Shown: positions 6,258-57,738 of the stretch, piece by piece
Position numbering within the stretch: position 1 is the stretch's first letter
Layout: each line of letters starts with the position of its first letter
NCBI GenBank assembly: GCA_040905385.1
Contig: JBBDRP010000002.1
Span: forward strand, 395,526-459,525
Reading direction: 5' to 3'
Source: Minisyncoccota bacterium
GTDB taxonomy: Bacteria; Patescibacteriota; Minisyncoccia; Phycocordibacterales; SW-6-46-9
Length of the DNA: 64,000 nt
Notes under the pieces: generated by a model
What the model was told of the DNA's origin: nothing
What the model saw: only the letters and a program-made list of their open reading frames with translations
Database searches by the model: none
Translations under genes and position numbers: made by a program

Positions 6258-6704
6258 ATGTTACGAATAAGACTTTCAAGAGTAGGCCGAAAACACGACC
6301 CATCCTATCGGATGATTGTGACGGAAAAAGGTCGTGGGCCACAAACAGGAAATTATGTTGAGCAGGTTGGTACGTATGATGCTCGCTCAGACGAGCACAA
6401 CCTGAAGGCTGATCGTATTACGCACTGGATTTCAGTGGGTGCGCAGCCAAGTGATACGGTACACAACCTTCTTCTGAAGGCTGGTGTTATCAAGGGTGAG
6501 ACAGTTAATCCGCTGCCAAAGAAAACGCCGATTGTTTCTGAATCTGACCCCGTAAAGGAATCTGAAGATTCCCACGAGGCAGGAGAAGAAGAGGAAGCAG
6601 AAAAAGCTGATGAAGAATCTGATGACGAAGATAACGAAGCCGTGGAAGCTGAGGAAGATAATGAGGACGACGATACTGACGAAGAAGAGGAGGAAAATCA
6701 GTAG
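6258..6704 (+). CDS. rpsP: 30S ribosomal protein S16 with long poly-acidic C-terminal extension
   Basis: MLRIRLSRVGRKHDPSYRMIV..ITHWISVGAQPSDTV is canonical S16; internal ATG at 6258 within ORF 6210..6704; C-terminal about 65 aa are D/E-rich and carry the 41-nt element shared with udg. Confidence 0.85.
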   Translation: MLRIRLSRVGRKHDPSYRMIVTEKGRGPQTGNYVEQVGTYDARSDEHNLKADRITHWISVGAQPSDTVHNLLLKAGVIKGETVNPLPKKTPIVSESDPVKESEDSHEAGEEEEAEKADEESDDEDNEAVEAEEDNEDDDTDEEEEENQ

Positions 6705-6738
6705 AAAGTCGAAAGTCGAAAGTTGAAAGTTGAAAACC
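6704..6738. repeat. Heptamer tandem repeat array (GAAAGTC x2, GAAAGTT x2, GAAAACC)
   Basis: Five 7-nt units starting in the rpsP stop codon and running into the terminator stem. Confidence 0.7.
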
Positions 6739-7943: not shown

Positions 7944-8642
7944 ATGCAATTCACAATAATTACAATATTTCCTGGCATGATCAAAGCCTATACCGACGAG
8001 TCGATCCTTGGTCGGGCGCAGGCAGATGGCCACATCCAGGTCGACATCATCGATCCGCGTGACTTTGCTGAAGACAAGCACAACAGTGTGGACGCACCGC
8101 CGTATGGTGGTGGACCAGGGATGGTCATGCAGGCCGAGCCGGTGCTACGCGCTGTTGAGAAAGCGCGTAGCGAGTCGAAAGTAGAAAGTAAAAAGTCGAA
8201 AGTCGTTGTATTATCGGCGCAAGGAAAGCAGTTCGATCGTCAGATGGCAAAGGGTACGGCAACAAGTATTGAGCATCTTATTTTGATCTGCGGGAGGTAC
8301 GAAGGGATTGACCGGCGAGTAATTGAAGCGCTGGAGGCCGAGGAAGTTTCGGTAGGGCCGTACATCCTTACTGGCGGTGAGTTGCCAGCACTGATCATGG
8401 TCGATGCGACCGCTCGGTTTGTATCAGGAGTACTTGGCAATGAGGAGTCCTTGGAGGATGAGCGTAGTGCCGGCACACACGTGTATACCCGACCAGAGAC
8501 CATTACCTATGAAGGCCAGGAGTATACGGTTCCGGAGGTACTAATGAGCGGTCACCACGCCGAGATCGAGGAGTGGCGAGCCCAGCAAGCCCCTCCTTCG
8601 CACAAGGCTTCGGAAGGGCGAAGGAAGAATCAGGAATCATGA
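7944..8642 (+). CDS. trmD: tRNA (guanine37-N1)-methyltransferase
   Basis: GGGPGMVMQAEPV, ICGRYEGIDRRV and ILTGGELPALIMVDA motifs; carries an in-frame heptamer-repeat insert encoding SESKVESKKSKV. Confidence 0.9.
   Translation: MQFTIITIFPGMIKAYTDESILGRAQADGHIQVDIIDPRDFAEDKHNSVDAPPYGGGPGMVMQAEPVLRAVEKARSESKVESKKSKVVVLSAQGKQFDRQMAKGTATSIEHLILICGRYEGIDRRVIEALEAEEVSVGPYILTGGELPALIMVDATARFVSGVLGNEESLEDERSAGTHVYTRPETITYEGQEYTVPEVLMSGHHAEIEEWRAQQAPPSHKASEGRRKNQES
8177..8204. repeat. Heptamer repeat array inside the trmD CDS (GAAAGTA GAAAGTA AAAAGTC GAAAGTC)
   Basis: Four in-frame 7-nt units of the GAAAGTN family encoding KVESKKSKV. Confidence 0.7.
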
Positions 8643-9315: not shown

Positions 9316-10440
9316 ATGCTACCTAACTACATACAAAATATAGAAGATAAAGAAAACACGCACGTCTTCGTGGCAATGAGCGGCGGGGTGGACTCGTCTG
9401 TAGCCGCTTACCTCTTGAAGGAAGCTGGCTTTCAGGTGACTGGCTGTTTTATGACGGTCTGGCAGCCACCATTTCTTGACTGCTCGATGGAGAGCGAGCG
9501 ACAGGATGCGATGCGCGTGGCTGCTGAGCTCGAGATTGACTTTCAGACGGTGGATCTGGCTGAGGAGTACAAGACTCGTGTGGTCGACTACATGATTGCC
9601 GAGTACAAGGCGGGGCGGACACCTAACCCAGATGTGATGTGCAACGGTGAGATTAAATTTGGTGCTTTTTTTGACTGGGCGATGGATGAGGGAGCAGACT
9701 ATGTGGCGACTGGACATTATGCGCGGCTTCGCAAGTCGAAAGTAGAAAGTGGAAAGTCAAAGGTTGAATTACTAGCCGGAGTTGATGAGAAAAAGGATCA
9801 GACGTACTTTCTGTGGCAGGTACCAACCGATCGACTAGAAAAAACGATGTTTCCCATCGGTCATCTAGAGAAGTCACAAGTACGCGAAATCGCGACCGAA
9901 GCTCAGCTGCCAGTGGCAGACAAAAAAGACAGCCAGGGTCTGTGCTTTCTTGGCCAAGTTGACATGCCGACATTCCTCGCCGAGTTCACCGACCTGAAAC
10001 CCGGAGACGTGCTTAATGAAGCCGGCGAGGTCATCGGTACCCATGATGGGGCGGTGGTCTATACCATCGGCCAGCGACATGGTTTTAATATCCAGAAAAA
10101 GATGCCAGACAGTGGTCCGTGGTATGTCACCGACAAAGATACCGAAGCTAATACCATTACCGTCACCGAGGACAATACCATCGGTGGCGCCACCTTCAAC
10201 TGTCGTGAGATGAAGCTTACAAAGACAAACTGGATCAACGGCCAGCCCGAGGGTCGGCTGCAGGCACGAATCCGCTATAATCAAACGTTGCAGCCGTGTG
10301 AAGTTATGGAGAAGGACGGAGAAGTCGTTGTCACCTTTGATGAACCACTGCGGGCAGTGGCTGTGGGGCAGTCGTGTGTGGTTTATGATGGAGAGCACTG
10401 TCTGGGGGGAGGAATCATTGACATAATAAATATAGTGTAG
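9316..10440 (+). CDS. mnmA: tRNA-specific 2-thiouridylase
   Basis: PP-loop VAMSGGVDSSVAAYLL, catalytic Cys motifs; in-frame heptamer insert encoding KSKVESGKSKV. Confidence 0.9.
   Translation: MLPNYIQNIEDKENTHVFVAMSGGVDSSVAAYLLKEAGFQVTGCFMTVWQPPFLDCSMESERQDAMRVAAELEIDFQTVDLAEEYKTRVVDYMIAEYKAGRTPNPDVMCNGEIKFGAFFDWAMDEGADYVATGHYARLRKSKVESGKSKVELLAGVDEKKDQTYFLWQVPTDRLEKTMFPIGHLEKSQVREIATEAQLPVADKKDSQGLCFLGQVDMPTFLAEFTDLKPGDVLNEAGEVIGTHDGAVVYTIGQRHGFNIQKKMPDSGPWYVTDKDTEANTITVTEDNTIGGATFNCREMKLTKTNWINGQPEGRLQARIRYNQTLQPCEVMEKDGEVVVTFDEPLRAVAVGQSCVVYDGEHCLGGGIIDIINIV
9738..9765. repeat. Heptamer repeat array inside the mnmA CDS (GAAAGTA GAAAGTG GAAAGTC AAAGGTT)
   Basis: Same family as the arrays at 1932, 6704, 8177 and 17259. 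Confidence 0.7.
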
Positions 10441-10495: not shown

Positions 10496-11113
10496 ATGAA
10501 GAAAGTTATTTTCTTCTTAACACTCATTGTCACTGCAGCTACTGCTCCAGAGGCAACGGCACAGAGAGTTTTTAATTTCGAGTACGTCACGATGGGGAGT
10601 GGTGAAAGTGTAGTGGCTGATGGCATGTACTTCACAGCCACTGCATCACATGGTAATAATCTCTTAACCGCAGCTTTTACGCCAATAAGTGCAGAAGCCA
10701 GGTATCTAAGTAGTGATGTATTTGGAATCAACGGCCTCTATCTTGGCCCGTCAGGTGGCTTCATGAAAGGAGTTCCGTGGTTTGGTCCAATTGCAACGTA
10801 TTCGCCGATATCAGCGATAAGCTTGACCGCCTGGACTGGTGTCTCAGCTGGGGATGCTGCTCTCGGTGTTTTTGATCTAAAAAATCCAGAAATGGCTTTT
10901 CTGCAGCTAGATGCGATGATAAATTTTACAGAGAATCTTTATGTAGGGTTTAGTTATCTTGAATTTTCTGGTGACCATTATCTGCCATATGCTGGCGGTG
11001 AAATGTCATTAGGTAGTGCGATGGCAATCTTTGGTTCAATTACGCTTCCTGTGAAAGACGGTAAATTCGATGATCCCATGTTCTTTCTAGGCTTTCGTTT
11101 GGGATTTAATTAA
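10496..11113 (+). CDS. Hypothetical secreted protein
   Basis: Signal peptide MKKVIFFLTLIVTAATAPEATAQ; Gly/Ala-rich beta-type composition; terminator hairpin at about 11126-11159. Confidence 0.5.
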   Translation: MKKVIFFLTLIVTAATAPEATAQRVFNFEYVTMGSGESVVADGMYFTATASHGNNLLTAAFTPISAEARYLSSDVFGINGLYLGPSGGFMKGVPWFGPIATYSPISAISLTAWTGVSAGDAALGVFDLKNPEMAFLQLDAMINFTENLYVGFSYLEFSGDHYLPYAGGEMSLGSAMAIFGSITLPVKDGKFDDPMFFLGFRLGFN

Positions 11114-11196
11114 TTTTTTTTAACAAAGACACCTTGGCTTCACAGCTCTGGTGTCTTTTCATCTATATGTGGTGTATGCAGATAAAATGTACTTTT

Positions 11197-11228
11197 AACT
11201 TTACAGACCTTTGACTTTAGACTCTTTG
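11197..11228. repeat. Heptamer-family repeat (reverse orientation: ..GAGTCTAAAGTCAAAGGTCTGTAAAGTT) in the leader of 11250..12089
   Basis: Reverse complement of GAAAGTN-like units immediately upstream of the ATG at 11250. Confidence 0.5.
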
Positions 11229-11249
11229 TTCGTGATACAATTTATCTAT

Positions 11250-12089
11250 ATGAGTAAACGAATTATTGTTGAAAAGTATGACGGTACTAAGGAGCCGTTT
11301 GATGCAGAAAAGCTGCGCGAGTCGCTTGAGGAGTCTCAGACTCCGGAAGATCTGATTGATGATATTATTGCTACGATCGAGGCTGAGGTGGATGAGCAGA
11401 CGACGACGAAGGTTATCTACACACGAGCTTTCGATCTTCTGAAGGAGAAACGCCATTCGTACGCTGCCCGGTACTCATTACGTCAGGCATTAGCGGATCT
11501 AGGACCGACCGGGTATCCGTTCGAGCAGTTTGTAGCGCACATTTTTGAGGCCCAGGGATTTAAAACGACTGTTGGAGAGGTAATGCAGGGCTCATGCACG
11601 ACACATGAGATTGATGTAGTAGCAGAAAATGATGAGAAGCTGATTCTGGTAGAGGCAAAATTTCACAATGATCGGACAATTAAATCAGCACTGCAAACAG
11701 CCCTTTATGTTAGGGCTCGGTTTGATGATCTGCAGGATAACCATCATGACAAGTTTAAGGATGACGGAAAAAAGATTGAGCGCTGGCTGGTTACAAACAC
11801 AAAGTTCTCCAAGCAGGCTATTGAGTACGGCGAGTGTGCTGGTCTGCATATGGTTGGTTGGGGGCATCCAAAGCGGGGAAATCTAGAACATCTCATCACC
11901 GAGGCTGATCTACAGCCAGTCACCGCCCTAACAACACTATCTAATAGTCATAAGAGAGATCTTACGAAGCGAGGATTAGTTCTTTGTAAGAATATGCGTA
12001 ACGAGACGGACAAGCTTAAAGAGTTAGGTTTCAGTGATGAAAAAATTAAGGAGGTGTTGAATGAGGTCAATCATCTTTGTCAGTTATAA
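11250..12089 (+). CDS. ATP-cone domain fused to Mrr-like (PD-(D/E)XK) restriction endonuclease domain
   Basis: N-terminus RIIVEKYDGTKEPFDAEKLRESL..YSLRQ fits the ATP-cone pattern; GYPFEQFVAHIFEAQGF..THEIDVVAE..LILVEAKF..WLVTNTKFSKQA fits the Mrr catalytic domain; internal ATG chosen within ORF 11211. Confidence 0.6.
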   Translation: MSKRIIVEKYDGTKEPFDAEKLRESLEESQTPEDLIDDIIATIEAEVDEQTTTKVIYTRAFDLLKEKRHSYAARYSLRQALADLGPTGYPFEQFVAHIFEAQGFKTTVGEVMQGSCTTHEIDVVAENDEKLILVEAKFHNDRTIKSALQTALYVRARFDDLQDNHHDKFKDDGKKIERWLVTNTKFSKQAIEYGECAGLHMVGWGHPKRGNLEHLITEADLQPVTALTTLSNSHKRDLTKRGLVLCKNMRNETDKLKELGFSDEKIKEVLNEVNHLCQL

Positions 12090-12230
12090 TTGATTTATCA
12101 TTCATGGTATTGAATCGGTCACAGGTATACTAAAGTTGAACTATTTTTCACTTTTCACCCGGGCATAAAATCGTAGATTTCATTTTTGCGAAGAAAAATG
12201 TTTAACCGGGTAAACTTTTAACTAATTATC

Positions 12231-13025
12231 ATGTCTCAGTATTATCGCGTTCCGCGCACAAAATATAAGTTTAATCCCGAAAAGCCAGAGAGCTTCGAGC
12301 TTAGTCGGTCCAAAATTGATCTGTTTGTTGAGTGTCCACGTTGTTTTTATGTTGATATGCGGCTGGGAGTAAAGCGTGTTCCAGGTTATCCATTTACGCT
12401 AAACAATGCCGTTGATGAGCTAATGAAGCGTGAGTTTGATGAGTACCGAAAGGATGGCAAGACGCACCCTATCATGGAGGAGTATGGAATTGATGCGGTT
12501 CCATTTCAGCATGATGACCTTGAGGACTGGCGGCATCCGTTTACTGGTATTCGACGTAAACATGAAGCGACTGGATTTACTGTCTACGGTGCACCGGATG
12601 ACATCTGGAAGAATCCAGAAGGCCGGCTGGCGGTCGTGGATTACAAGGCCACTTCCAAGCAGGAGAAACTGAGCTTATCGGCCGACTGGCAGGGTGCCTG
12701 GAAGCGGCAGATGGAGGTGTACCAGTGGCTCTTGCGGGGGCAGGACTTTGATGTATCCGATCGCGGTTACTTTGTGTATGCAAACGCGGACAAGTCGCTG
12801 GCAGGGCTAAACGGATCGCTGCAGTTTGATCTGCAGATTCTGCCGTACGATGGCAGTGATGACTGGATTGATGAGACAATAGTTGCTATTGAGGAATGCT
12901 TGATGAGTGACGAGGTTCCACCGGCTGATGCCGAGTGTGACTACTGCACGTATCGAGAGGTCGCCAGCGAAGTCATCCAGAAAGCGGTTGAGGATGAGAA
13001 GCCGGATCAGGAGCTTCCATTTTAA
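12231..13025 (+). CDS. Cas4/RecB-like PD-(D/E)XK nuclease with Cys cluster (stand-alone, no CRISPR)
   Basis: VVDYKAT ((D/E)xK) and QMEVYQWLL (QxxxY) motifs; CPRC near the N-terminus and CDYC near the C-terminus suggest an Fe-S cluster. Confidence 0.55.
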   Translation: MSQYYRVPRTKYKFNPEKPESFELSRSKIDLFVECPRCFYVDMRLGVKRVPGYPFTLNNAVDELMKREFDEYRKDGKTHPIMEEYGIDAVPFQHDDLEDWRHPFTGIRRKHEATGFTVYGAPDDIWKNPEGRLAVVDYKATSKQEKLSLSADWQGAWKRQMEVYQWLLRGQDFDVSDRGYFVYANADKSLAGLNGSLQFDLQILPYDGSDDWIDETIVAIEECLMSDEVPPADAECDYCTYREVASEVIQKAVEDEKPDQELPF

Positions 13026-13027
13026 GT

Positions 13028-13288
13028 ATGTCTACAACGTTTTCAGATGCAGTTCTGGAATATGTTGCCAAAATACCAGCCGGTGAGGTGCGAACCTACG
13101 CCGAGGTCGCGGCGGCCTGCGCATCTCCGTTAGCATCACGAGCGGTAGGGTCGATTATGGCTAAAAATTTTAATCCTCAGGTTCCATGTCACCGGGTGAT
13201 TCGATCCGACGGTACGGTCGGAGACTATAATCGCGGTGGATCAGCGGCCAAGCGGAAGATTTTAGAGCGCGAAGGTGTTATGCTTTAG
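13028..13288 (+). CDS. ogt: Short methylated-DNA-protein-cysteine methyltransferase DNA-binding-domain protein (Ogt/ATL-like)
   Basis: VPCHRVI active-site motif in an 86-aa single-domain protein. Confidence 0.7.
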   Translation: MSTTFSDAVLEYVAKIPAGEVRTYAEVAAACASPLASRAVGSIMAKNFNPQVPCHRVIRSDGTVGDYNRGGSAAKRKILEREGVML

Positions 13289-13343: not shown

Positions 13344-13391
13344 CCTAGTAACCTAAATTCCTAGCAACCTAACTTCCTAGTAACCTAGACC
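13344..13391. repeat. Octamer tandem array CCTAGTAA CCTAAATT CCTAGCAA CCTAACTT CCTAGTAA CCTAGACC ending at the pcm start codon
   Basis: Six phased 8-nt units CCTARNNN ending at the base before the ATG at 13392; a sister array lies at 27662-27701. Confidence 0.7.
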
Positions 13392-14039
13392 ATGAATACT
13401 ACTGATATTTTTGCCGACAACTGGAAATCACACAATGACCTCGTCGATCGTCTTAAAGATGAGACGGGGGTACTGGAGACGCCGCGTATAGAGAGAGCCT
13501 TCAGAGAGATAGACCGCCGTGACTTTGTGCGTGATATGTATGATGTCGAGGCTTATGAAGACTATCCTATTCCGATTGGACAGGAGCAGACGATTTCGCA
13601 ACCTACGACGGTGGTCTACATGCTTGAGCTACTGTCACCACAAGAAGGTGATACGATTCTTGATGTTGGCTGTGGTTCTGGCTGGACGACAGCGCTGCTT
13701 GGAGAGATTGTTGGTCGACATGGTCGAGTGGTGGGCATGGAGATAATCGAGGAGCTGGCTGAATTTGGACAGAAGAATCTGGCTCGTTACGAGCTTCCGC
13801 AAGCTGAGATTCGTCATGGCAATCCACTCAAGGAAAAGCAGCCAGAAGCGCCGTTTTCGCGTATTCTGGTCTCGGCCGGAACTAATCATGTACCGAAAGC
13901 CTTAACCGACCAGCTGGCTGTAGGTGGAGTGATGGTGATTCCGATTGATGAGTCATTAGTGCAAGTTAAAAAGAAGTCTGATGATGAGCTGCTCCAGAAG
14001 GAGGTACCAGGCTTTGTTTTTGTACCGCTTCAGGAGTAA
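13392..14039 (+). CDS. pcm: Protein-L-isoaspartate O-methyltransferase
   Basis: TISQPTTVVYMLELL and ILDVGCGSGWTTALL SAM-binding motifs. Confidence 0.85.
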   Translation: MNTTDIFADNWKSHNDLVDRLKDETGVLETPRIERAFREIDRRDFVRDMYDVEAYEDYPIPIGQEQTISQPTTVVYMLELLSPQEGDTILDVGCGSGWTTALLGEIVGRHGRVVGMEIIEELAEFGQKNLARYELPQAEIRHGNPLKEKQPEAPFSRILVSAGTNHVPKALTDQLAVGGVMVIPIDESLVQVKKKSDDELLQKEVPGFVFVPLQE

Positions 14040-14044
14040 AGATT

Positions 14045-14722
14045 ATGAGCAACAAAGATAAAACTGCGGCATTAGAGGCGCTAAAGGACGAGGTGGTTGC
14101 CTTGGAAGCGTCGCCGCTGTATACGTACCGTCAGGAGCACGGTTATCTACCGGTGCTGGGTGAGGGAAGTCACGATGCTGATATTATGTTCATCGGTGAG
14201 GCTCCCGGAGAGAGCGAGGCCAAGACCGGTCGGCCATTTTGCGGACGAAGTGGGAAGCTTCTGGATGAGTTTTTGGAGCATATTAATCTTGATCGTGCGG
14301 ATGTGTACATCACCAATGTGCTGAAGGATCGCCCGCCAGAGAATCGTGATCCGCAAACGGACGAGATTGAGATTTATACGCCTTTTTTACGCCGGCAGAT
14401 CTCAATCATCCAGCCGAAGGTGATTGCTACGCTAGGTCGTTTCTCGATGGAGTTTATTGCCGATGAGTACGGTATCGAGCTGGATGGTACGATTACCCAG
14501 GTACGGGGTAAGATTTACGAGATAGACCCCGGTACCACGTCGTCTGACCCCGTAGAGGAATCAGAAAATTCCCACGAGGCAGGTGACGACGGCTACGGGG
14601 CAGGGGAGGATGGCCAGACGATTACCTTTATCCCGCTGTTTCATCCGGCCGTAGCGTTGTATGATGGTTCCAAGCGCGATGTGCTGAAGGAGGATTTTGA
14701 AACATTGGCCGACTTCACATAA
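14045..14722 (+). CDS. udg: Uracil-DNA glycosylase, family 4
   Basis: GEGSHDADIMFIGEAPGESEAKTGRPFCGRSGKLL and FIPLFHPA motifs; in-frame insert SSDPVEESENSHEAGDDGYGAGEDGQT before the HPA motif. Confidence 0.8.
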   Translation: MSNKDKTAALEALKDEVVALEASPLYTYRQEHGYLPVLGEGSHDADIMFIGEAPGESEAKTGRPFCGRSGKLLDEFLEHINLDRADVYITNVLKDRPPENRDPQTDEIEIYTPFLRRQISIIQPKVIATLGRFSMEFIADEYGIELDGTITQVRGKIYEIDPGTTSSDPVEESENSHEAGDDGYGAGEDGQTITFIPLFHPAVALYDGSKRDVLKEDFETLADFT

Positions 14723-14911: not shown

Positions 14912-16699
14912 ATGAATACAAATGAGATTAAAACCAAGTGGGACCTGTCACTTTTTTATGAAGACGACTCGTCTAATAATGAGGCAGGAGATCCGTCTGA
15001 GGCAATTCAGGCTGATGTGGCATCGGCCAGAGAGGCGTACGAAGGATTTGCCGACACGTACCGAGCGGATGAGTCATACCTAGAAGACCCAAAGGCACTA
15101 AAGGGGGCACTAGAGGAGCTGGAGTACCTGGGCGGAAAAAAGAACCTGTCTCGACCACTCTACTATTTGGCGTACCGACGTAGTCTTAATTCAGCCGATC
15201 AAGAGGCCGAGGCAATGGAGAACAAGCTGTCGCAGGAGTATACCAAGCTCGGCAATCTTCTGACCTTTTTCGATCTCAAACTGGGGAAGGTATCTAAAGC
15301 GAAGCAGCAGGAGTTTCTGGCTTCTGAGGAGCTGGCCCATTATCGCAAGTATCTCCAGTGGTTTTTCAAGACAGCTCAGTACCAGCTGGATGAATCAACC
15401 GAGAATACCCTGTCACTAACAAGTCTCCCACGATTTGGAATGTGGGTAGATGGGGTGCAGAAGGTGCTGAGTCAGAAGACGGTGGAGTGGAAAGGTGAAG
15501 AGCTGCCACTGCCGGAGGCGATGAACAAGATTCAGGATTTGATCACTGACGATCGCCGGAAGCTACACAACCTCTGCATAGAGAAGGTCAAGGAAGTAAA
15601 GGAGTTTTCCGAAAGTGAGATTAATGCGGTGGTGACCAACAAGAAAATTGTCGATGAGATGCGGGGTTACGAAAGCCCGTATCAGGCCACGGTGCTTGGC
15701 TATGAAAATACACCAGAAGAGGTGGAGACGCTGGTAAATACTGTTACCGATAATTTTGATGTTGCTCATGATTTTTATGATATCAAGGCGGAGATACTGG
15801 ATGTCGATAAGCTTTCTTATGCTGATCGGCAGGCATCGGTTGGGAATATGGATCGAGAGTTTGATTATCAAAGAAGCGTAGAGCTGGCACATGAAGCCAT
15901 TAGTGGAATGGATGCAGATTTCGCTGCTGTATTTGAACGGCTTGTCACCGGAGGGCAGGTGGATGTGTATCCAAAGAAGGGCAAGCAGGGTGGTGCCTTT
16001 TGTTCCGGAGCTCAGTATCTACCAACTCTGCTTTTTTTGAACCATGTTGATAATTACGACTCACTTAAGACGTTTGTTCATGAGATGGGACATGCTATTC
16101 ATACTGAAATGTCTAAGGAGCGAACTCCGCTATATCAAGAATATACAACCTCCACGGCCGAGACAGCTAGTACATTGTTCGAGAAGGTCTTCTTTAATTA
16201 TTTGTACCCGCAGCTAACAGATGAAGAGAAGGTGATTGCCCTTCATGACAAGATTAACGGCAAGGTATCGACTATTTTCCGTCAGGTTGCCTGCTTTAAC
16301 TTTGAAAAGGATTTACATGAAGGCATTCGTGAGAAAGGAAGCCTACCACATACGGAGATTGCCAAGCTGATGAATCGGCATATGCAGGCGTATCTCGGTG
16401 ATCGGTTTGAGCTTACCGACGATGATGGTTACTTCTTCATCAGCTGGCCGCATATTCGTAACTCATTCTACGTATACAGCTACGCGTACGGAGATCTTGT
16501 TAGTAGTGCAATGATGGAAAAGCTGGATGATGATCCTGACTACACCCAGGAGATCAAGCAGTTCCTGTTGGCTGGAAGCTCGAAAAGCCCGCAGGAGATC
16601 TTTGCAGATATTGGTATCGACACCACAACACCGGAAGTCTTCGAGACCGGCATTCAGGCCGTGCGAGACGATATCGAGGAATTAAGAAAGCTTATCTAG
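14912..16699 (+). CDS. pepF: Oligoendopeptidase F (M3B family)
   Basis: HEMGHAIH zinc motif, 595 aa. Confidence 0.85.
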   Translation: MNTNEIKTKWDLSLFYEDDSSNNEAGDPSEAIQADVASAREAYEGFADTYRADESYLEDPKALKGALEELEYLGGKKNLSRPLYYLAYRRSLNSADQEAEAMENKLSQEYTKLGNLLTFFDLKLGKVSKAKQQEFLASEELAHYRKYLQWFFKTAQYQLDESTENTLSLTSLPRFGMWVDGVQKVLSQKTVEWKGEELPLPEAMNKIQDLITDDRRKLHNLCIEKVKEVKEFSESEINAVVTNKKIVDEMRGYESPYQATVLGYENTPEEVETLVNTVTDNFDVAHDFYDIKAEILDVDKLSYADRQASVGNMDREFDYQRSVELAHEAISGMDADFAAVFERLVTGGQVDVYPKKGKQGGAFCSGAQYLPTLLFLNHVDNYDSLKTFVHEMGHAIHTEMSKERTPLYQEYTTSTAETASTLFEKVFFNYLYPQLTDEEKVIALHDKINGKVSTIFRQVACFNFEKDLHEGIREKGSLPHTEIAKLMNRHMQAYLGDRFELTDDDGYFFISWPHIRNSFYVYSYAYGDLVSSAMMEKLDDDPDYTQEIKQFLLAGSSKSPQEIFADIGIDTTTPEVFETGIQAVRDDIEELRKLI

Positions 16700-18899: not shown

Positions 18900-20681
18900 A
18901 TGAAATCAACCGAAATCAGACAGCGTTTCCTGGACTTTTTTAAAGACCGCGATCACGCGGTCATTCCATCAGCCAGTCTGATCCCGAAGGATGATCCGTC
19001 AGTACTGTTTACGACTGCCGGCATGCAGCCACTGGTGCCGTATCTCCTTGGTGGGAAGCATCCGGAAGGGAAGCGAGTCGTCAATGTCCAGAAGTGCGTG
19101 CGTACCCAGGATATCGAGGAGGTCGGGGATAAGACGCACGACACCTTTTTTGAGATGCTCGGTAACTGGTCGTTTGGTGACTACTTTAAAAAAGAAGCTA
19201 TTACCTGGAGCTATGAGTTCCTTACGGATGAGGAGGCCGGACTCGGGCTCGATCCTGATCGGCTTTACGTTACGTGTTTTGCTGGTAACGACGACGTGCC
19301 GCGTGATGAGGAGTCGGCTGAAATATGGCAATCACTTGGTGTTCCTGAGCACCGAATTTACTTCTTGAAAGAGAACTGGTGGTCTCCGGGACCAGACGGC
19401 CCGTGCGGACCGGATACCGAAATGTTTTATGATATTACTTCGGATGGATTAGGTGATCTCGATCTGCGTAGCTTTAAGGAAGCCGATGGTCGCCAGCAGG
19501 TGGTTGAGATCTGGAATGATGTTTTGATGGAGTATGAGAAGAAGGACGGCGAGGTTGTTGGCAAACTCGAACAACAGAATGTTGATACAGGGGCTGGTCT
19601 GGAGCGGCTGGCGATGGTACTACAGAGCGTCGACTCCATATTTGCCACTGATCTGTTCGCCCCGATAATGGAAAGAATCGATGAGCTTAAAGAGCAGGCG
19701 CACGAGCAGTCCGAGCGAATCGTGGCTGACCACATCCGTACCGCCAGCTTCATCATTGCTGCTGGGGTACAGCCGGACAATACCGGCCGTGGCTACGTCC
19801 TGCGCCGGCTGTTGCGCCGAGCGGTCCAGCACGCCGACAAACTCGGGATGCAGTCGGGGGATCTCCTTGAGCTTGTGCCGTCAGTTGTATCTATATACAA
19901 GAAGCCATATCCAGAAATATCCGATAATGAAGCCCTGATTGTCAGCACCATCGAGGAAGAGGAGGGAAGTTTTCGGGAGACACTTGAACGCGGCCGGGCA
20001 GAGTTTACAAAGATTAATGGCGACATCTCTGGGAAGCAGGCGTTTGACCTGTATCAGACTCACGGCCTGCCGCTGGAGATCACGCTGCAACTAGCTGAAG
20101 AGAAAGGAGTAGCAGTGGATGTGCCGGCCTTTGAGGAGGCAATGAAGGATCATAAGGAGAAGTCACAAGCCGCCGGTAGTAAACAGTTTGCTGGTGGACT
20201 GGCTGACAGTCAGGAGGAGACGGTGAAGCTACATACGGCTACTCATCTTTTGAATCAAGCGTTGCGGGATGTGTTGGGTGATCATGTGGCACAGGAAGGC
20301 TCCAACATTACGACCGAGCGTCTGCGGTTTGACTTTACGCATGACGAGGCTTTAACGGAGGAGGAGATCGCGGAGATTGAGCGGATTGTCAACGAAAAGA
20401 TTCAGTCTGGCCTGGAGGTTCGTTGTGAGGAACGCTCGGTAGAGCGGGCTAAGGAGAACGGAGCGATTTATCTACCGCAAGCGGATTACCCGGACACCGT
20501 GACGGTTTACGAAATGGCGCATCCCGAGTCTCATGAACATGGAGGCGTTATCTACTCTCGAGAGATCTGTATGGGTCCGCATGTTGAGAACACACGCGAT
20601 CTGGGAACCTTTAAGATCACAAAAGAAGAGTCGAGCTCAGCCGGTATTCGCCGAATCAAGGCTATCCTAGAATCTACATAA
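18900..20681 (+). CDS. alaS: Alanyl-tRNA synthetase, short form (catalytic and editing regions, no C-Ala domain)
   Basis: N-terminus FLDFFKDRDHAVIPSASLIPKDDPSVLFTTAGMQ; editing HTATHLLNQAL..H and CMGPHV motifs; 593 aa. Confidence 0.85.
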   Translation: MKSTEIRQRFLDFFKDRDHAVIPSASLIPKDDPSVLFTTAGMQPLVPYLLGGKHPEGKRVVNVQKCVRTQDIEEVGDKTHDTFFEMLGNWSFGDYFKKEAITWSYEFLTDEEAGLGLDPDRLYVTCFAGNDDVPRDEESAEIWQSLGVPEHRIYFLKENWWSPGPDGPCGPDTEMFYDITSDGLGDLDLRSFKEADGRQQVVEIWNDVLMEYEKKDGEVVGKLEQQNVDTGAGLERLAMVLQSVDSIFATDLFAPIMERIDELKEQAHEQSERIVADHIRTASFIIAAGVQPDNTGRGYVLRRLLRRAVQHADKLGMQSGDLLELVPSVVSIYKKPYPEISDNEALIVSTIEEEEGSFRETLERGRAEFTKINGDISGKQAFDLYQTHGLPLEITLQLAEEKGVAVDVPAFEEAMKDHKEKSQAAGSKQFAGGLADSQEETVKLHTATHLLNQALRDVLGDHVAQEGSNITTERLRFDFTHDEALTEEEIAEIERIVNEKIQSGLEVRCEERSVERAKENGAIYLPQADYPDTVTVYEMAHPESHEHGGVIYSREICMGPHVENTRDLGTFKITKEESSSAGIRRIKAILEST

Positions 20682-20904: not shown

Positions 20905-22068
20905 ATGGGTTTCTTTACGAAAAAATCTTCATCGCGAGCCGCCGTTGTTTACGACATTAGTGATAACAGCGTGGCAGCGGCCTTTGTTGCTACTGATAAG
21001 AAGTTGCCAGAGATATTCTGGTCGCGTCGGTATCCTGTGGTTGTAAATAAGGATCATGGTCATAACTCCTACACCCGCGCTTTACGCCGAGCACTCGAGG
21101 TTCTGCAGCGAGATGTTCTGAAGACCGGACTTCCGCTTCTGAACCGACTCGGTATAGAGACTGATTCGCTGACGGTGAAGTGCGTTCTGTCATCTGGATG
21201 GCATACGGCCGATACTATTACGTCGCGTCTACATACGGGCGAAGCATTTATACCGGGTACGCATCATATAGAGAAGGCGCAGCAGCAGGCACATGATGAT
21301 TTCGTTTCTCGTTATGGCGATGCATTTTACGGTGATGATCCGGCACACCTTAGCCACCGCTTACTCGGTATTCACGGTGATGGTCAACCAGCTATGCTGT
21401 CGCGAAAGCGTCCGGTAGAGAAGCTGGACGTTCATATGTATATCAGTAAGGCACCACAGATGGTGCAGCAGATTCTCGAGTCACAGCTTGGGCAAACCTT
21501 TAATCGGGAAAGCATTGATTATCATTCTGGGTACGAGACAGTAAATGATGCCTTGATGGGAGCTGATCGCAGTCTACGAGATTTTCTCGTGATACTTCCG
21601 AGCCGACGTAAAACCGATGTACTACATACGGCCGGTGGCACAATTCGCGGTATCTCTTCATCACCGCTTGGTGAGGACTTTATGATCCGCACAATTTCTA
21701 AGGCATTCAATCGACCAGTATCTGACATTCGATCTCGAATTGAGCTGCATCGGCAGCAGCGTCATCATCCTGATTCTGCTCAGGAGATGGACATTGCACT
21801 GAGTGAAATATCCCGTCGCTGGACGGAGTCGGTCTACGAAAGTATGAGAGCTGCCAGCAACGGATCACTGCCGCAGCAGGCGTACCTTATGCTTCCGGCT
21901 ACAAAGACCAGTATTGTATTTGCTGACTTTGCATCCCGTCTCCTTGATAAGGCGCCGAGTCTGGAAGTATTTCTTATCAACCAGGAGCGATTCAGTGATT
22001 ACGTGCAGAATTACAACAAATCCGATCATACTCTCACAGTCAGTGTGCTTGGATCTTGTGGATATTAA
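20905..22068 (+). CDS. Hypothetical protein, possibly actin-like ATPase fold (PilM/FtsA/Ppx-like N-terminus)
   Basis: AVVYDISDNSVAAAFVA resembles the phosphate-1 motif of ASKHA-superfamily proteins; weak. Confidence 0.3.
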   Translation: MGFFTKKSSSRAAVVYDISDNSVAAAFVATDKKLPEIFWSRRYPVVVNKDHGHNSYTRALRRALEVLQRDVLKTGLPLLNRLGIETDSLTVKCVLSSGWHTADTITSRLHTGEAFIPGTHHIEKAQQQAHDDFVSRYGDAFYGDDPAHLSHRLLGIHGDGQPAMLSRKRPVEKLDVHMYISKAPQMVQQILESQLGQTFNRESIDYHSGYETVNDALMGADRSLRDFLVILPSRRKTDVLHTAGGTIRGISSSPLGEDFMIRTISKAFNRPVSDIRSRIELHRQQRHHPDSAQEMDIALSEISRRWTESVYESMRAASNGSLPQQAYLMLPATKTSIVFADFASRLLDKAPSLEVFLINQERFSDYVQNYNKSDHTLTVSVLGSCGY

Positions 22069-22097: not shown

Positions 22098-23384
22098 ATG
22101 AGCAAATCTGTATCAGGGATAACACAACGAAATAAACGCTCCATTCAGGAGATTCAGCGTCATCGTGAGGATTCAGGTGGCGGAGGTAGCCGTAATGGGG
22201 GAGATAATGATCATCATAATGGACCAGAGTATCAACCACCGGGACGACATGACTCACAGCGAGCTGCTACCTTTGGGATCTGGTTTGTTGGGGTTGTTAG
22301 TATCTTTTTTGTATTCTTTCTCTTCTCGGTTCTTTTTGCTGAGACGACTGTGACGGTTTACCCCGAGACTGCTGATATTAACATTGACGAAACGTACACT
22401 GCTTCTAACGCTAATGATGTAGACGGCGTACCATTTTCAGTTGTAACCGCCAAGGAGTCTATTGCGGTGAATGCCACGACAACCGGTACTGAGTATCGCG
22501 AGCAGGCGGCATCTGGTGAGATAACAATTTATAATGACTACTCAAACGAGACAATTCGTTTAGTACCGAATACACGTTTTCAGACTGATGAGGAGCTAAT
22601 CTATCGGACCAGCGAAGCCATCACCGTCCCGGGTCAGATGTCTGATGGTACTCCAGGCACGGTGATTGCCACAGTAACTGCAGATGAGCCGGGTGCTGAC
22701 TACAACGTTTCTAATATCAGGTTCTCAATTCCTGGCTTTGCGGATACGGTGTACGAGGAAGATGTATATGCTGAGTCGAACGGAGATATTTCTGGCGGCA
22801 TTGCTGGGGATGTACCGATTGTAGCCACCAGTACCCGTCAGGCTTTAGAAGAAGAGGTTGGTGATCAACTTCGAAGTCAACTACAAACATCAGTAGAGGC
22901 AGAACTTCCGGATGGATTTATTCTTTATGATGACGCTATGTTCTTTTCTACCAGCCTTGGTACTGATGACGAAGATGATACTACATTAGCTGTGGAGGGT
23001 GAGTTGCAGGCAGTTGTATTTGACGGTCGTCAGTTGTCGACATTCCTGGCCACTAACTATAGTGATGATATTTCACCGCAATCTAATATACGGATTCAGA
23101 ATTTGGAGGATTTTGTTTTTGAGATTATTGATCGTGAATCTTATACACCGTCTGAGGGATCAAGTTTCGAATTTTCATTACAAGGTGATTCACAAATTGT
23201 CTGGCAGTTTGATGAGCGGGCACTGGTCCGTGATCTCCGTGGTTTGCAGAAGGATCGGCTGAATGAAGTGTTAGTAAATTACGACAGCATTCAGGAGGCA
23301 GAGGTAGTAACCCGACCATTCTGGAAGCAGAATCTGCCGGATGATGCAGCTGAGATCGGTGTCCAGACAGTAATTGATCGCTAA
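22098..23384 (+). CDS. Hypothetical membrane-anchored protein with large extracytoplasmic domain
   Basis: Gly/His-rich cytoplasmic N-terminus, single TM (FGIWFVGVVSIFFVFFLFSVLFA), Thr/Asp-rich ectodomain. Confidence 0.4.
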   Translation: MSKSVSGITQRNKRSIQEIQRHREDSGGGGSRNGGDNDHHNGPEYQPPGRHDSQRAATFGIWFVGVVSIFFVFFLFSVLFAETTVTVYPETADINIDETYTASNANDVDGVPFSVVTAKESIAVNATTTGTEYREQAASGEITIYNDYSNETIRLVPNTRFQTDEELIYRTSEAITVPGQMSDGTPGTVIATVTADEPGADYNVSNIRFSIPGFADTVYEEDVYAESNGDISGGIAGDVPIVATSTRQALEEEVGDQLRSQLQTSVEAELPDGFILYDDAMFFSTSLGTDDEDDTTLAVEGELQAVVFDGRQLSTFLATNYSDDISPQSNIRIQNLEDFVFEIIDRESYTPSEGSSFEFSLQGDSQIVWQFDERALVRDLRGLQKDRLNEVLVNYDSIQEAEVVTRPFWKQNLPDDAAEIGVQTVIDR

Positions 23385-27633: not shown

Positions 27634-27661
27634 CGAACAAGGTCATCTAGTGTCACAAGAT

Positions 27662-27701
27662 CCTAGCACCCTAATTTCCTAAAAACCTAATCTCCTAGAA
27701 T
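27662..27701. repeat. Octamer tandem array CCTAGCAC CCTAATTT CCTAAAAA CCTAATCT CCTAGAAT ending 1 nt before the grpE start codon
   Basis: Five phased CCTARNNN units; same family and same position relative to the ATG as the array 13344-13391. Confidence 0.7.
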
Positions 27702-27702
27702 T

Positions 27703-28320
27703 ATGGCGGATACTGAGGATAAAGAAACACAGCAAGATCCTGAAGAAAACGCAACTGTCGACGCTGAGACTGATGGTGAGTATGTTATTGAGGAAGAGAA
27801 TGATGGAGATCATACCGACAGCGATAATCAGTCAAAAGACACTGTCAGCCGACTGAGAGAGAAGCTGAAGCAGTGTGTATCTGAAAAGCAGGAGTATCTT
27901 GATGGTTGGCAGCGGGCCAAGGCCGACATGGTTAACACACGTAAGGAGTTTGCAAGGGAGCGTGAGCGGATGAAGGAACGCACAACCGAGGAGGTGATTG
28001 CCTCGATTCTACCAGTCCTAGACTCATTTGAGATGGCTTTTGCTGATAAGGACAAATGGAATGAGGTTGAGGAGCAGTGGCGATCAGGAGTTGAGCATAT
28101 ACACACGCAGCTCGTTAATGTGCTCAAGTCACATGGTGTTGAGTCAATTATTCCCGGCGAGGGCGATGCTTTTAGTCCACAGCAGCATACATCGGTCGAT
28201 ACGATGGCTGCAGCGAGTGCGGATCAGGATGATACGGTGGCTCGCTGTGAGAAGACTGGTTACCGTATCGGTGATCGCATCATCCGCAGTGCAAATGTTG
28301 TGGTTTATAAATCAGAGTAG
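27703..28320 (+). CDS. grpE: Nucleotide exchange factor GrpE
   Basis: Coiled-coil N-terminus, SILPVLDSFEMAF, C-terminal beta domain GYRIGDRIIRSANVVV. Confidence 0.85.
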   Translation: MADTEDKETQQDPEENATVDAETDGEYVIEEENDGDHTDSDNQSKDTVSRLREKLKQCVSEKQEYLDGWQRAKADMVNTRKEFARERERMKERTTEEVIASILPVLDSFEMAFADKDKWNEVEEQWRSGVEHIHTQLVNVLKSHGVESIIPGEGDAFSPQQHTSVDTMAAASADQDDTVARCEKTGYRIGDRIIRSANVVVYKSE

Positions 28321-53861: not shown

Positions 53862-53919
53862 TATTTTTTATACGATATTCGTAATGTAAGTATTTTTTAT
53901 ACGATATTCGTAATGTAAG
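53862..53919. repeat. Perfect 29-bp tandem direct repeat (TATTTTTTATACGATATTCGTAATGTAAG x2)
   Basis: The second copy encodes the last 7 codons plus stop of rnhB (minus strand); the first copy is an exact duplicate in the 53160..53783 promoter region. Confidence 0.8.
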
Positions 53920-54493
53920 AACGTCGGTGGATTGGTGAAGGTCCATGTGTTTGTATCGCCTCACAATGAGCTTCTGTACCGTAACCCTTGTGCTGGGCAA
54001 GCTTAAACGTCGGATACATGACATCAAGTCGACGCATATGATTATCTCTGGACACCTTGGCAATCACGGAGGCCAGCGAAATAATCGGCTGAATACCATC
54101 ACCTCCAATGATCGTTTTCTGGTGCTTGAATTTATCTGGCGCCTGTAATCCCCCATCCAGATAAATCTTTACGTTATCAGGATTAGGTACTAACCTCTCC
54201 AGTCCGCTATCTATTGCGTTCTGGACAGCTTGCTGAATACCGTCAGAATCAATTTCCGTAGCACTAGTATGGCTAGTAGTCCATCTTATACCGGGTGATG
54301 CTTCCTCCATTTTCCTCAGTATCGTATAAACCTTCTCGCGCCTACGTTCGGTCATCTTCTTGGAGTCATCGAGATGCGGAAAAATGCCAAAATCAAAGTC
54401 TATCGGTGCAGCCACAAGACCAACATAAACCGGACCAGCCAGTGGTCCGCGGCCAGCCTCATCGATGCCAATATGAAGTGTCGGTTTTTTCAT
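53897..54493 (-). CDS. rnhB: Ribonuclease HII
   Basis: MKKPTLHIGIDEAGRGPLAGPVYVGLV; internal ATG within ORF ending at 54550. Confidence 0.85.
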   Translation of the reverse strand: MKKPTLHIGIDEAGRGPLAGPVYVGLVAAPIDFDFGIFPHLDDSKKMTERRREKVYTILRKMEEASPGIRWTTSHTSATEIDSDGIQQAVQNAIDSGLERLVPNPDNVKIYLDGGLQAPDKFKHQKTIIGGDGIQPIISLASVIAKVSRDNHMRRLDVMYPTFKLAQHKGYGTEAHCEAIQTHGPSPIHRRSYITNIV

Positions 54494-54567
54494 ACACCTT
54501 ATAGTACCGCATGAATGCCGACACAGATCTCTTGTATAATGGTCATGCAATAAGCCGCCGCAACCTT

Positions 54568-57500: not shown

Positions 57501-57738
57501 GGTTGTTATCCCTGGGTTACTGGAAAGCATCAACGTTATCCGCACCAAAAAAGGTGACGAAATGGCCTTTGTTCGTGTGGCTGATTTATCCGACTCTATC
57601 GAGATTGTAGTTTTCCCGGATGCATTTGAAAAGTACAAAGACTCACTCGTGTCTGACTCCTGTGTGGTTGTGGAGGGAAAGATTTCAAATCGAAACAATG
57701 AGGTCAGTGTGATCCTTGATCGAATTAAGATTCTATAG
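54568..57738 (+). CDS. dnaE: DNA polymerase III alpha subunit
   Basis: PHP domain HLHTHSHYSLL; polymerase core; C-terminal OB fold; no intein. Confidence 0.9.
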   Translation: MSQITHLHTHSHYSLLSALPKIPELVERAGKHNLSALALTDSNNLYGAIEFYKACQAADIKPIIGAEMYVAPRTRHDKQAGVDKARDRVILLVKNEVGYKNLIRLVTDANLEGFYYTPRIDTELMKKHQEGLIAILPAQNSEVTDALKADDTQRAIDAIEKYRGVYGPENTYLEITRHPEIPGYDDATEKIVPLAKKTDTPLVAGHDIFYLDPDDHQACQTLRDVQSAGGDFMAEGGDFSFLSPKEMKKRFKDLPEALDNIDKIVAACNLELELGNWVFPDIETTGGRSYDEELKTLVYDGIPWRELEKTDKLVERIEYELGIIRNKGYSSYFLVVADLLAYARENDILTTIRGSVAGSLVTYLAGITNLNPLDYGLQFERFLNPDRPSAPDIDMDFADNRRDEVIQYARRKYGTDTEERVAQIGTFGTMAARGSIRDVTRALGYNYSLGDDIAKKIPLGSQGFKMTIERALDESDDLAEMYKDDPKVREIVDMAQKVEGCARHISVHAAGVVIAPEEITNYVPLEVDSKKGEVITQYDMHSVEDAGLVKFDFLGLKNLAILSDAIHRVEDRTGERIDIEKIPLDDENTFEMLGEGHTHSTFQLNGEGMTQFLQKLKPTNINDINAMVALYRPGPMKFIPEYIKRKHNPELVDYPHEDLKEFLEQSYGLLIYQEDVMLTAIHLAGYSWLDADKFRKAMGKKIPELMAKQEQKFKEGCVKNGIKDSLADNLWERIKPFAAYAFNKAHAASYGRVAYQTAYMKANYPKEYMAAVLTADAGNVEKIHDIIGECERMGLDVLPPDINESFGTFTIVDEGDHEAIRFGLFSVKHVGEKITQTIIDEREKHGKFSSLEDLLTRITGRNFNKKTLEALIKCGALDSLGKRYHMLAHIDEILTFSKEADSRSKDQQSLFGAAAIEAQPKLRLSRGEPHTKETKLAWEKDLLGLYVSGHPLDKIREKLEKREKDIAFIKKYHKKMPKVVIPGLLESINVIRTKKGDEMAFVRVADLSDSIEIVVFPDAFEKYKDSLVSDSCVVVEGKISNRNNEVSVILDRIKIL

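Follow-up and report, generated by a model that had tools for sequence, protein, structure and literature searches.

The 64,000-nucleotide stretch of DNA analysed here (the window) belongs to Candidatus Paceibacterota, within the candidate phyla radiation (CPR), and carries at 11250..12089 an open reading frame (ORF) whose 279-amino-acid (aa) product, X for short, joins an ATP-cone to a nuclease. The ORFs that an earlier note on this DNA had singled out are all present at the coordinates listed below, each on the plus strand. That note had read 11250..12089 as a fusion of an ATP-cone to an Mrr-type core, and profile search confirmed it, both domains scoring above their Pfam cutoffs. Pfam also found a third domain that the first description lacked, an AF1548-like helical domain at the C-terminus, which is a probable binder of the nucleic-acid backbone.

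11250..12089, plus strand: X, consisting of an ATP-cone, an Mrr-type PD-(D/E)XK nuclease and an AF1548-like, helix-hairpin-helix (HhH)-like C-terminal domain (Pfam, three domains above curated cutoffs)
11265..11483, plus strand: ATP-cone domain, aa 6-78 (PF03477, 32.9 bits against a cutoff of 25.8)
11511..11834, plus strand: Mrr_cat PD-(D/E)XK nuclease core, aa 88-195 (PF04471, 31.5 bits against a cutoff of 21)
11916..12074, plus strand: AF1548-like_C helical domain, HhH-like, aa 223-275 (PF22357, 24.8 bits, above its cutoff)

Homologues of X share an MSK...VEKYDGTKE N-terminus, and the ATG at 11250 is therefore the usual start of the family. Residues 93-274, which span the nuclease and C-terminal domains, match the PDB protein AF1548 (1Y88) of Archaeoglobus fulgidus in both sequence and fold. 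In family alignments the nuclease residues E92, D122 and E135-x-K137 are invariant in both the CPR and the non-CPR branches; the other invariant polar residues are H119, E120, H139, N140 and a T-N-T-K motif at 182-185. The conserved core stretches include F138-H139-N140 and T182-N183-T184-K185, and a rigid LGPxGxPFE linker connects cone to nuclease throughout the family. D122, E135 and K137 of X align to D51, E64 and K66 of the 1Y88 chain, which, assuming a 13-residue tag offset, would be the residues D38, E51 and K53 that were predicted to be catalytic in AF1548 (PMC1821046). A survey of PD-(D/E)XK enzymes places 1Y88 under Mrr_cat/COG1787 (PMC3424549). Unlike X, this structural-genomics protein is a 199-aa chain without an ATP-cone, and the match supplies a fold for X and no mechanism.

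The cone of X is built of a beta-hairpin lid and a four-helix cone that superpose on the cones of NrdR and of ribonucleotide reductases (RNRs), and fold comparison found that of NrdR to be the closest. In Escherichia coli NrdR the residues K53, E59 and K65 lie over the adenine, V51, F61, L66 and I108 belong to the pocket, and S105 is at the gamma-phosphate (bioRxiv 10.1101/2025.03.28.645925). A profile alignment, weak in sequence (E about 0.3) and backed by the fold match, sets NrdR K53, E59, K65, V51, F61, L66, I108 and S105 opposite K9, E15, K21, V7, F17, L22, I56 and T53 of X, respectively. Across the family K9, F17, K21 and L22 are invariant, E15, T53 and I56 are at least 90% conserved, and position 7 is a conserved hydrophobic residue, while the equivalent of RNR R10 is variable (Y10 in the window protein, S54 in E. 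coli NrdR). Judged from alignment and fold, the cone of X is very probably competent to bind a ligand. Because the cone contacts are kept and the catalytic residues are invariant, a nucleotide-gated nuclease is a reasonable reading of the design. To our knowledge, the functional characterisation of the ATP-cone has so far been limited to RNRs and their repressor NrdR. There its output is the RNR catalytic subunit or a zinc-ribbon DNA binder, whereas the output domain of X is a nuclease.

Spread of the X family and comparison with defence nucleases

The fusion seen in the window is not a local curiosity of one genome. A word-indexed search returned 2745 relatives of the window protein and at least 7522 when a Bacteroidota member of the family served as query. 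In an exhaustive HMMER scan covering 1.84 billion cluster representatives, 413 clusters at 50% identity reached E<=1e-30. The best 150 representatives are nearly all about 275-290 aa long and match from about residue 5; therefore members of the family normally combine cone and nuclease, and a cone-less protein such as AF1548 is exceptional. Indeed, the fusion is the usual form in CPR, Bacteroidota and Chlamydiota alike. At least 597 GTDB species genomes carry X, among them many Paceibacteria lineages, Criblamydia (Chlamydiota), a Nitrospira metagenome-assembled genome (MAG) and the Bacteroidota Pontibacter, Sporocytophaga, Flavobacterium, Cyclobacterium, Owenweeksia and Cellulophaga. Four of these genera, Pontibacter, Flavobacterium, Sporocytophaga and Cyclobacterium, are cultured and genetically tractable. 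Database names for the family conflict ('ATP cone domain-containing protein', 'restriction endonuclease', 'ATPase', 'Holliday junction resolvase'), and the literature that we searched contains no experimental characterisation of an ATP-cone-nuclease fusion and, for AF1548, only a nuclease prediction. X is an ordinary member of a family that is already annotated but uncharacterised.

The family shows few signs of mobility. No relative of X was found among 2.9 million IMG/VR viral contigs or among 50,697 GenBank phage records, and only 2 of 72,556 plasmids carry it, one from Pontibacter actiniarum (Bacteroidota) and one from Criblamydia sequanensis (Chlamydiota). Median identity to the window protein, measured at the same loci, is 45% for X as compared with 49% for mnmA, 48% for udg4, 48% for pcm and 43% for pepF. 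X has thus diverged like these genes, and therefore it evolves as a housekeeping gene. Taken as a whole, X is a chromosomal housekeeping gene of a large family, non-mobile and without defence association.

These observations bear on the suggestion in the earlier note that an ATP-cone-gated nuclease of restriction type might sense the dNTP pool as an effector of defence or repair. The architecture it described holds and nucleotide sensing is plausible, but the defence role finds no backing in PADLOC, viral, plasmid or context data. A defence effector of this kind could be a type IV or Mrr-like restriction enzyme, or an abortive-infection nuclease that responds to an ATP/dNTP pool perturbed by phage. 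The Mrr_cat domain would suit it, as would a sensor coupled to a PD-(D/E)XK effector, a layout typical of defence nucleases; X is also structurally similar to the nuclease domains of AspBHI, MspJI, Can2, Card1, Hna, Avs3 and HamA, and PADLOC gave a marginal, partial match to PDC-S02 (E=1e-4). However, no PADLOC defence model was matched significantly, PHROGs returned nothing meaningful, and viral and phage copies are lacking as described above. In addition, the position of X is fixed within a block of housekeeping genes, the contexts examined hold no methyltransferase, modified-DNA reader or defence-island neighbour, and the architecture of about 280 aa is constant across phyla. We therefore regard a role in defence as highly improbable.

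Enzymes of the Mrr/type IV and MspJI/AspBHI groups bear a modified-DNA reader or a winged-helix domain at the N-terminus, where X has its ATP-cone, and X differs from Mrr/type IV restriction in lacking defence context and mobility and in being conserved like a housekeeping gene. The presumed ligand-gated PD-(D/E)XK design of X is that of Can2, Card1, Cdn1 and NucC from type III CRISPR systems and the cyclic-oligonucleotide-based antiphage signalling system (CBASS). In those proteins the sensor is a CARF or SAVED domain rather than an ATP-cone, and Can2/Card1-type ligands are cyclic oligonucleotide second messengers, whereas the presumed ligand of X is a primary metabolite, ATP or dATP. No CRISPR or CBASS genes lie near X. 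As a system, X would be both a new variation on ligand-gated nucleases and a new use of the ATP-cone.

Gene order around X in the CPR

The earlier note had placed X in a neighbourhood of three genes, followed by pcm and udg. The genes that flank X in the window, and the signals next to it, are as follows.

9316..10440, plus strand: mnmA (tRNA 2-thiouridylase), in CPR the upstream gene most conserved beside X (Pfam)
10496..11113, plus strand: lineage-specific ORF of 205 aa with a signal peptide, between mnmA and X (absent from 80 of 80 related loci)
11125..11158: terminator-like hairpin after the 205-aa ORF (from sequence)
11211..11241, plus strand: possible promoter of X itself, with TTGACT at 11211-11216 and an extended -10 element TGaTACAAT at 11233-11241 (read by eye)
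12231..13025, plus strand: PD-(D/E)XK nuclease of the RecB/Cas4 superfamily, 264 aa (Pfam PDDEXK_1, 49.4 bits against a cutoff of 22)
13028..13288, plus strand: stand-alone MGMT/Ogt C-terminal domain (MGMT-C), 86 aa, with a PCHR active-site motif (Pfam, TIGR00589)
13392..14039, plus strand: pcm, protein-L-isoaspartate O-methyltransferase (Pfam 182.5 bits, TIGR00080 172 bits)
14045..14722, plus strand: udg4, family-4 uracil-DNA glycosylase, the most frequent downstream member of the block (TIGR00758, 172 bits)
14912..16699, plus strand: pepF-like M3 oligopeptidase, a conserved block member (Pfam)
18900..20681, plus strand: alaS, the downstream anchor of the Paceibacteria synteny block (Pfam)

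Both pcm and udg were confirmed by Pfam and TIGR models. The 205-aa ORF has no Pfam or PHROG match. The putative -10 element ends 9 nt ahead of the ATG of X and would imply a nearly leaderless mRNA, a reading by eye that carries low weight; a consensus promoter scan was silent here because the spacer is 19 nt.

The Cas4/RecB-like nuclease with four Cys that the note had described belongs to that superfamily and its four cysteines are invariant, but its scores lie under the cutoffs of the Cas4 families themselves (TIGR00372, 35.8 against 65; PF01930, 21.0 against 22.7). The RecB motifs are intact and invariant in the alignment (D123, D124, D137-x-K139 and Q160-x3-Y164). An AF2 model (pLDDT 88.3) found its best Foldseek matches in the AdnA nuclease, type I-C Cas4, SSO0001, lambda exonuclease, RecE and Exo5; phmmer found nothing among PDB sequences, and only the fold comparison placed the protein. 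It has in common with the Fe-S nucleases Cas4, AddB, AdnA and Exo5 a RecB-type fold and the motifs D, DxK and QxxxY. In this family four invariant cysteines are present, arranged as C35-x2-C38 ... C236-x2-C239 (CxxC...CxxC, 2+2), while the canonical set in Cas4 and AddB is one N-terminal and three C-terminal residues, C...CxxCx5C. Judging by this spacing, the metal site of the CPR family may differ from the canonical one. The family is very large in CPR, with at least 7954 homologues and a mean column identity of 62% among 20 diverse members. One NCBI protein, from a Candidatus Paceibacterota MAG, is 100% identical to the Cas4-like protein of the window, and on this ground the window is assigned to CPR. 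As the note had said, the 64-kb window contains no CRISPR-like array; there is no cas gene among its annotated neighbours, not every ORF having been scanned for cas1/cas2, and none among the recurrent neighbours of the 21 CPR loci with the Cas4-like gene. Sub-cutoff scores and the want of array or cas neighbours set the protein apart from Cas4, and for both reasons 'Cas4' is not a fitting name for 12231..13025. X genes should not be annotated as restriction or defence genes, nor their Cas4-like neighbours as CRISPR components.

The MGMT-C gene begins 2 bp past the stop of the Cas4-like gene, and this pair recurs in 11 loci. The product is the 86-aa MGMT DNA-binding-domain protein of the note, PCHR motif included, scoring 93.9 bits with PF01035 (DNA_binding_1; cutoff 27) and 74.2 bits with TIGR00589 (cutoff 46.4). 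Its alignment to human MGMT, Ada and Ogt falls on their C-terminal domains, with its PCHR opposite that of human MGMT, and covers only residues about 90-175 of the full-length Ogt/MGMT enzymes. Like them it thus has a complete catalytic and DNA-binding C-domain, but Ogt and MGMT are two-domain proteins and this one, a putative minimal alkyltransferase, is entirely without the N-terminal domain.

The gene order of the window was compared with that of 80 reference-genome X loci, 70 from CPR and 10 from Bacteroidota, whose flanks were searched first with the neighbour proteins of the window and then by de novo clustering of all flanking ORFs. The strongest CPR neighbour, which the earlier note had passed over, is mnmA: in 55 of the 70 loci whose upstream flank is long enough, it is the gene directly before X and shares its strand, often with gaps of 6-80 bp. 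In Paceibacteria it forms part of a longer block that runs leuS, a sigma70-r4/HARE-HTH protein, unk424 (a 424-aa protein), mltG, mnmA and X, and continues beyond X with a variable slot, udg4, sometimes pepF, alaS, an unknown protein and a GlxA-like protein. The search with window proteins found udg4 downstream of X in 34 of 73 loci, the Cas4-like gene in 19, MGMT-C in 14 and pepF in 12; de novo clustering placed alaS in 41 of the 70 CPR loci. The window keeps the downstream order, namely X, Cas4-like, MGMT-C, pcm, udg4, pepF, prephenate dehydratase and alaS at 18900, and is rearranged upstream, with trmD where the block has mltG. An apparent tandem 'mnmA mnmA' proved to be an artefact of single-linkage clustering, the extra gene being mltG/yceG.

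The protein of roughly 424 aa upstream of mltG, present in 46 of 70 CPR loci, has no Pfam match, nor does a protein of roughly 395 aa found after alaS in 22 CPR loci. The window ORFs that follow alaS, 20905..22068 and 22098..23384, likewise lack Pfam matches, and only the second fits the GlxA-like cluster. In a Patescibacteria MAG (locus L006, 2603-5449) the leuS of the block includes a NUDIX domain at aa 389-502, which follows the editing domain and precedes the second half of the catalytic domain.

The slot directly after X is occupied by different genes in different CPR loci:

Cas4-like nuclease: 15 loci (21 within 5 kb)
MgtC: 14 loci (16 within 5 kb)
HD_3/YfbR-like 5'-deoxynucleotidase: 8 loci (12 within 5 kb)
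DUF7282: 5 loci
udg4: 5 loci
various others: the remaining loci

Overall, the Cas4-like gene lies downstream of X in 21 of the 70 CPR loci and MGMT-C in 14, and X, Cas4-like and MGMT-C occur together in 11, always in the same order; other occupants are of comparable frequency (MgtC 16, pepF 13, pcm 10). None of the 92 non-CPR loci described below has this grouping. The co-occurrence check across genomes therefore upholds the three-gene neighbourhood as a real arrangement in CPR, but speaks only weakly for a functional unit. Since the linkage of the Cas4-like gene to X is no tighter than that of unrelated slot genes, the neighbourhood is best explained as inherited Paceibacteria gene order rather than as an obligate module. 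The slot genes MgtC and HD_3 were sought in the window and neither was found there.

MgtC-family genes adjoin X in two unrelated lineages, in 16 of 70 CPR loci (for example L053:5592-6098) and in 8 of 92 non-CPR loci (for example L112:496-1764). In Salmonella, MgtC is a modulator of the F1Fo ATP synthase and of ATP levels, and its recurrence would fit a theme of ATP status.

The conserved block has consequences for two proposals. One is that X and MnmA act jointly on tRNA or other RNA, X for instance cleaving hypomodified tRNA or taking part in its quality control. The close, same-strand pairing with mnmA, down to gaps of 6 bp, invites this idea, and the beta-CASP partner that X has elsewhere resembles aCPSF1 and possesses an RMMBL 'RNA specificity' domain. 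But mnmA accompanies X in 0 of 80 non-CPR loci, and the two genes are parted in the window by an unrelated ORF that brings a hairpin of its own. Moreover, mltG, unk424, the sigma-r4/HARE-HTH protein and leuS are similarly conserved upstream, so that the pair reflects general synteny. With the long block from leuS to alaS conserved and mnmA never found with X outside CPR, mnmA was rejected as a specific functional partner, and we consider the tRNA proposal quite improbable.

The other proposal, and the main rival to the role that we favour below, is that X is a nuclease of DNA repair or recombination, either structure-specific (flap, fork or junction) or directed to lesions. The ATP/dATP ratio would then couple cutting to the supply of dNTPs for repair synthesis, and the partners of the enzyme in CPR would be udg4, the MGMT domain and the Cas4-like protein. 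The order of nuclease and HhH-like domain parallels that of short XPF/Mus81-type enzymes, some sources label X homologues 'Holliday junction resolvase', and the downstream frequencies of udg4, Cas4-like and MGMT-C in CPR given above are in keeping with repair. Against this, those three genes stand beside X in 0 of 92 non-CPR loci, the CPR slot is held about as often by MgtC, pcm, pepF or DUF7282, and X resembles NucS and Hjc only at the level of the generic PD-(D/E)XK fold. Because the region is a long inherited synteny block, the adjacency of repair genes in CPR carries little functional weight. We judge a repair role to be unlikely, if still deserving of serious attention.

Gene clusters outside the CPR and a possible role for X

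A different set of neighbours emerged outside CPR. On the plasmids of Pontibacter and Criblamydia, two cultured organisms from different phyla, X heads a tight cluster with a hydrolase of the metallo-beta-lactamase (MBL) fold and beta-CASP type, a thymidine-phosphorylase (TP)-family protein and a ribose-phosphate pyrophosphokinase; genes for phosphoketolase, glycogen phosphorylase and acetate kinase border the Criblamydia cluster. We assembled 92 non-CPR loci, comprising the 80 metagenome loci nearest to the Bacteroidota-type X, 10 Bacteroidota genome loci and the 2 plasmids, and clustered their flanking ORFs de novo. The recurrent neighbours, as numbers of these 92 loci, were:

beta-CASP hydrolase, the strongest neighbour of X across phyla: 42
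Usp, usually upstream and often in tandem: 28
heavy-metal P-type ATPase: 23
TP-family protein: 17
phosphoribosyl-pyrophosphate (PRPP)-synthetase-like protein: 14
2-hydroxyacid dehydrogenase: 11
phosphofructokinase: 9
MgtC/DUF4010: 8
GAPDH-like protein: 8
PPK2: 5

None of mnmA, Cas4-like, MGMT-C, pcm and udg4 was found beside X in the non-CPR loci. In 60 of the metagenome loci the downstream sequence is long enough, and 33 of these 60 have the beta-CASP gene, 20 of the 33 with a gap of at most 75 bp. In ten beta-CASP loci a fixed spacer of about 300 bp follows X and holds a conserved ORF of 84 aa that has no Pfam match (L097, L098, L105 at 8862-9116, L109, L113, L120, L121, L126, L132 and L137).

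The partner proteins can be placed more closely. The beta-CASP protein combines an aCPSF1/Cas14-like ribonuclease core with the RMMBL domain, and among PRPP synthetases the kinase falls into subfamily PRK07199. The TP-family protein scores above the cutoff of TIGR02645, the archaeal 'putative thymidine phosphorylase' model of NCBIfam, and also aligns over its full length to the NCBIfam AMP phosphorylase model, at 480-506 bits against a cutoff of 535. The three partner genes also stand side by side in Bradyrhizobium diazoefficiens, as bll3115-3117 (MBL hydrolase, ribose-phosphate pyrophosphokinase and TP-family protein), and microoxia induces all of them at both transcript and protein level (PMC6515984). 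As far as we found, the association of X with the beta-CASP, AMP-phosphorylase-like and PRPP-synthetase-like proteins is new to the literature.

In non-CPR loci X usually comes first, with variable cargo genes behind it, which raises the proposal that it is a nucleotide-sensing transcription factor like NrdR, whose nuclease-fold and HhH-like domains bind an operator without cutting and control the genes downstream (the beta-CASP/TP/PRPP-synthetase cluster, P-type ATPases and others). NrdR, the sole characterised stand-alone ATP-cone protein, is indeed a repressor, and the cone of X is most like that of NrdR. However, the invariance of E92, D122, E135 and K137 and of the polar residues around them is unexpected in a purely DNA-binding domain, Pfam detected neither a helix-turn-helix nor a zinc ribbon in X, and in CPR the gene sits in a housekeeping block without an obvious regulon. 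A purely regulatory function is therefore improbable in our view.

The role that we favour, tentatively and with somewhat less than even confidence, is regulated turnover of nucleic acid that feeds nucleotide salvage and is gated by adenine nucleotides. It is the best-supported of the readings because of the operon-like cluster shared across phyla, lying in islands with Usp, PPK2, MgtC and fermentative or glycolytic genes, together with the occasional 5'-deoxynucleotidase and Cas4-like partners in CPR. The HhH-like domain would hold nucleic acid without sequence specificity while the PD-(D/E)XK site cleaves it, and occupancy of the cone by ATP, dATP or ADP would set the activity of X. In RNRs and NrdR, ATP and dATP switch the oligomeric state; by analogy, the cone of X would probably act in the same way. 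Breakdown of nucleic acid by X might supply salvage when energy or nucleotides run short. In Bacteroidota and Chlamydiota X may work with the adjacent beta-CASP hydrolase and the AMP-phosphorylase-like and PRPP-synthetase-like enzymes, whereas in salvage-dependent CPR cells it would be a constitutive core gene, sometimes with an HD-type 5'-deoxynucleotidase or the Cas4-like exonuclease next to it. De novo synthesis of nucleotides is generally missing from CPR bacteria, which would account for the fixed place of X among their core genes.

Several points weigh against this salvage role. The beta-CASP gene follows X directly in 0 of 70 CPR loci and about half of the non-CPR loci lack it, and the beta-CASP, TP-family, PRPP-synthetase, PPK2 and Usp genes were sought in the 64-kb window with no hit; as the partner module is missing from both the window and CPR, the role reaches the window protein by orthology only. 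HhH domains usually bind duplex DNA, and since the beta-CASP partner belongs to an RNA-specific type (RMMBL, aCPSF1-like), the substrate is ambiguous between DNA and RNA. X stands alone in Sporocytophaga, and in a Flavobacterium sp. a P-type ATPase gene starts before X has ended. The neighbours in the non-CPR islands are mixed (P-type ATPases, glycolytic enzymes, transporters), and X could be co-regulated with a stress island yet stand outside any pathway. The CPR flanks udg4, MGMT and Cas4-like fit DNA repair equally well, and the literature searched holds no biochemical data for any member of the family.

A more ambitious version of the salvage role, in which X is the first ATP-cone-controlled nuclease, operates in an unrecognised pathway from nucleic acid to ribose phosphate and nucleotides, and is a core salvage enzyme in CPR, appears doubtful to us. 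Were it true, X would read the adenylate/deoxyadenylate pool directly and toggle nucleic-acid degradation, the pathway would run in hypoxia or energy stress in Bacteroidota and Chlamydiota, and the biology of the ATP-cone would reach beyond ribonucleotide reduction, to which RNR and NrdR belong. If the cone gates the nuclease, it would provide a simple and widespread coupling of nucleic-acid cleavage to cellular nucleotide status. This bears both on how ultra-small, salvage-dependent CPR cells acquire nucleotides and on how other bacteria recycle nucleic acids in hypoxia or starvation.

Other features of the window

The genes of the first 46 kb of the window are nearly all co-oriented, and a shared strand is therefore no evidence for an operon. 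GC skew is positive to about 46 kb and then reverses along with gene orientation; the switch near 46-48 kb could be a replication origin, a terminus or an inversion boundary.

Several repeats were also seen. A 16-nt tandem repeat, CCTAG[T/C]AACCTAA.., is present three times at 13344..13388, ending 3 nt before the ATG of pcm, and at 27661..27700 a similar array of 2.5 copies stops 2 nt short of the ATG of ORF 27703..28320. With at most 1 mismatch allowed, the pattern CCTAGWAACCTAA has 4 matches against 0.10 expected, and the repeats ahead of these two genes may be a common element of the 5' untranslated region or an operator. A 7-nt repeat, AGTCGAA, occurs five times at each of two sites, 6700..6735 and 8173..8205, the second of which lies inside trmD and encodes ..SKVESKKSKV... 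Around aa 150 mnmA bears a similar insert, KSKVESGKSKVE, and the same low-complexity peptide is therefore present in two tRNA-modification enzymes. Finally, a perfect 29-nt direct repeat in two copies (TATTTTTTATACGATATTCGTAATGTAAG) lies at 53862..53919, at the junction of the divergent ORFs 53897..54550 (minus strand) and 54511..57738 (plus strand).

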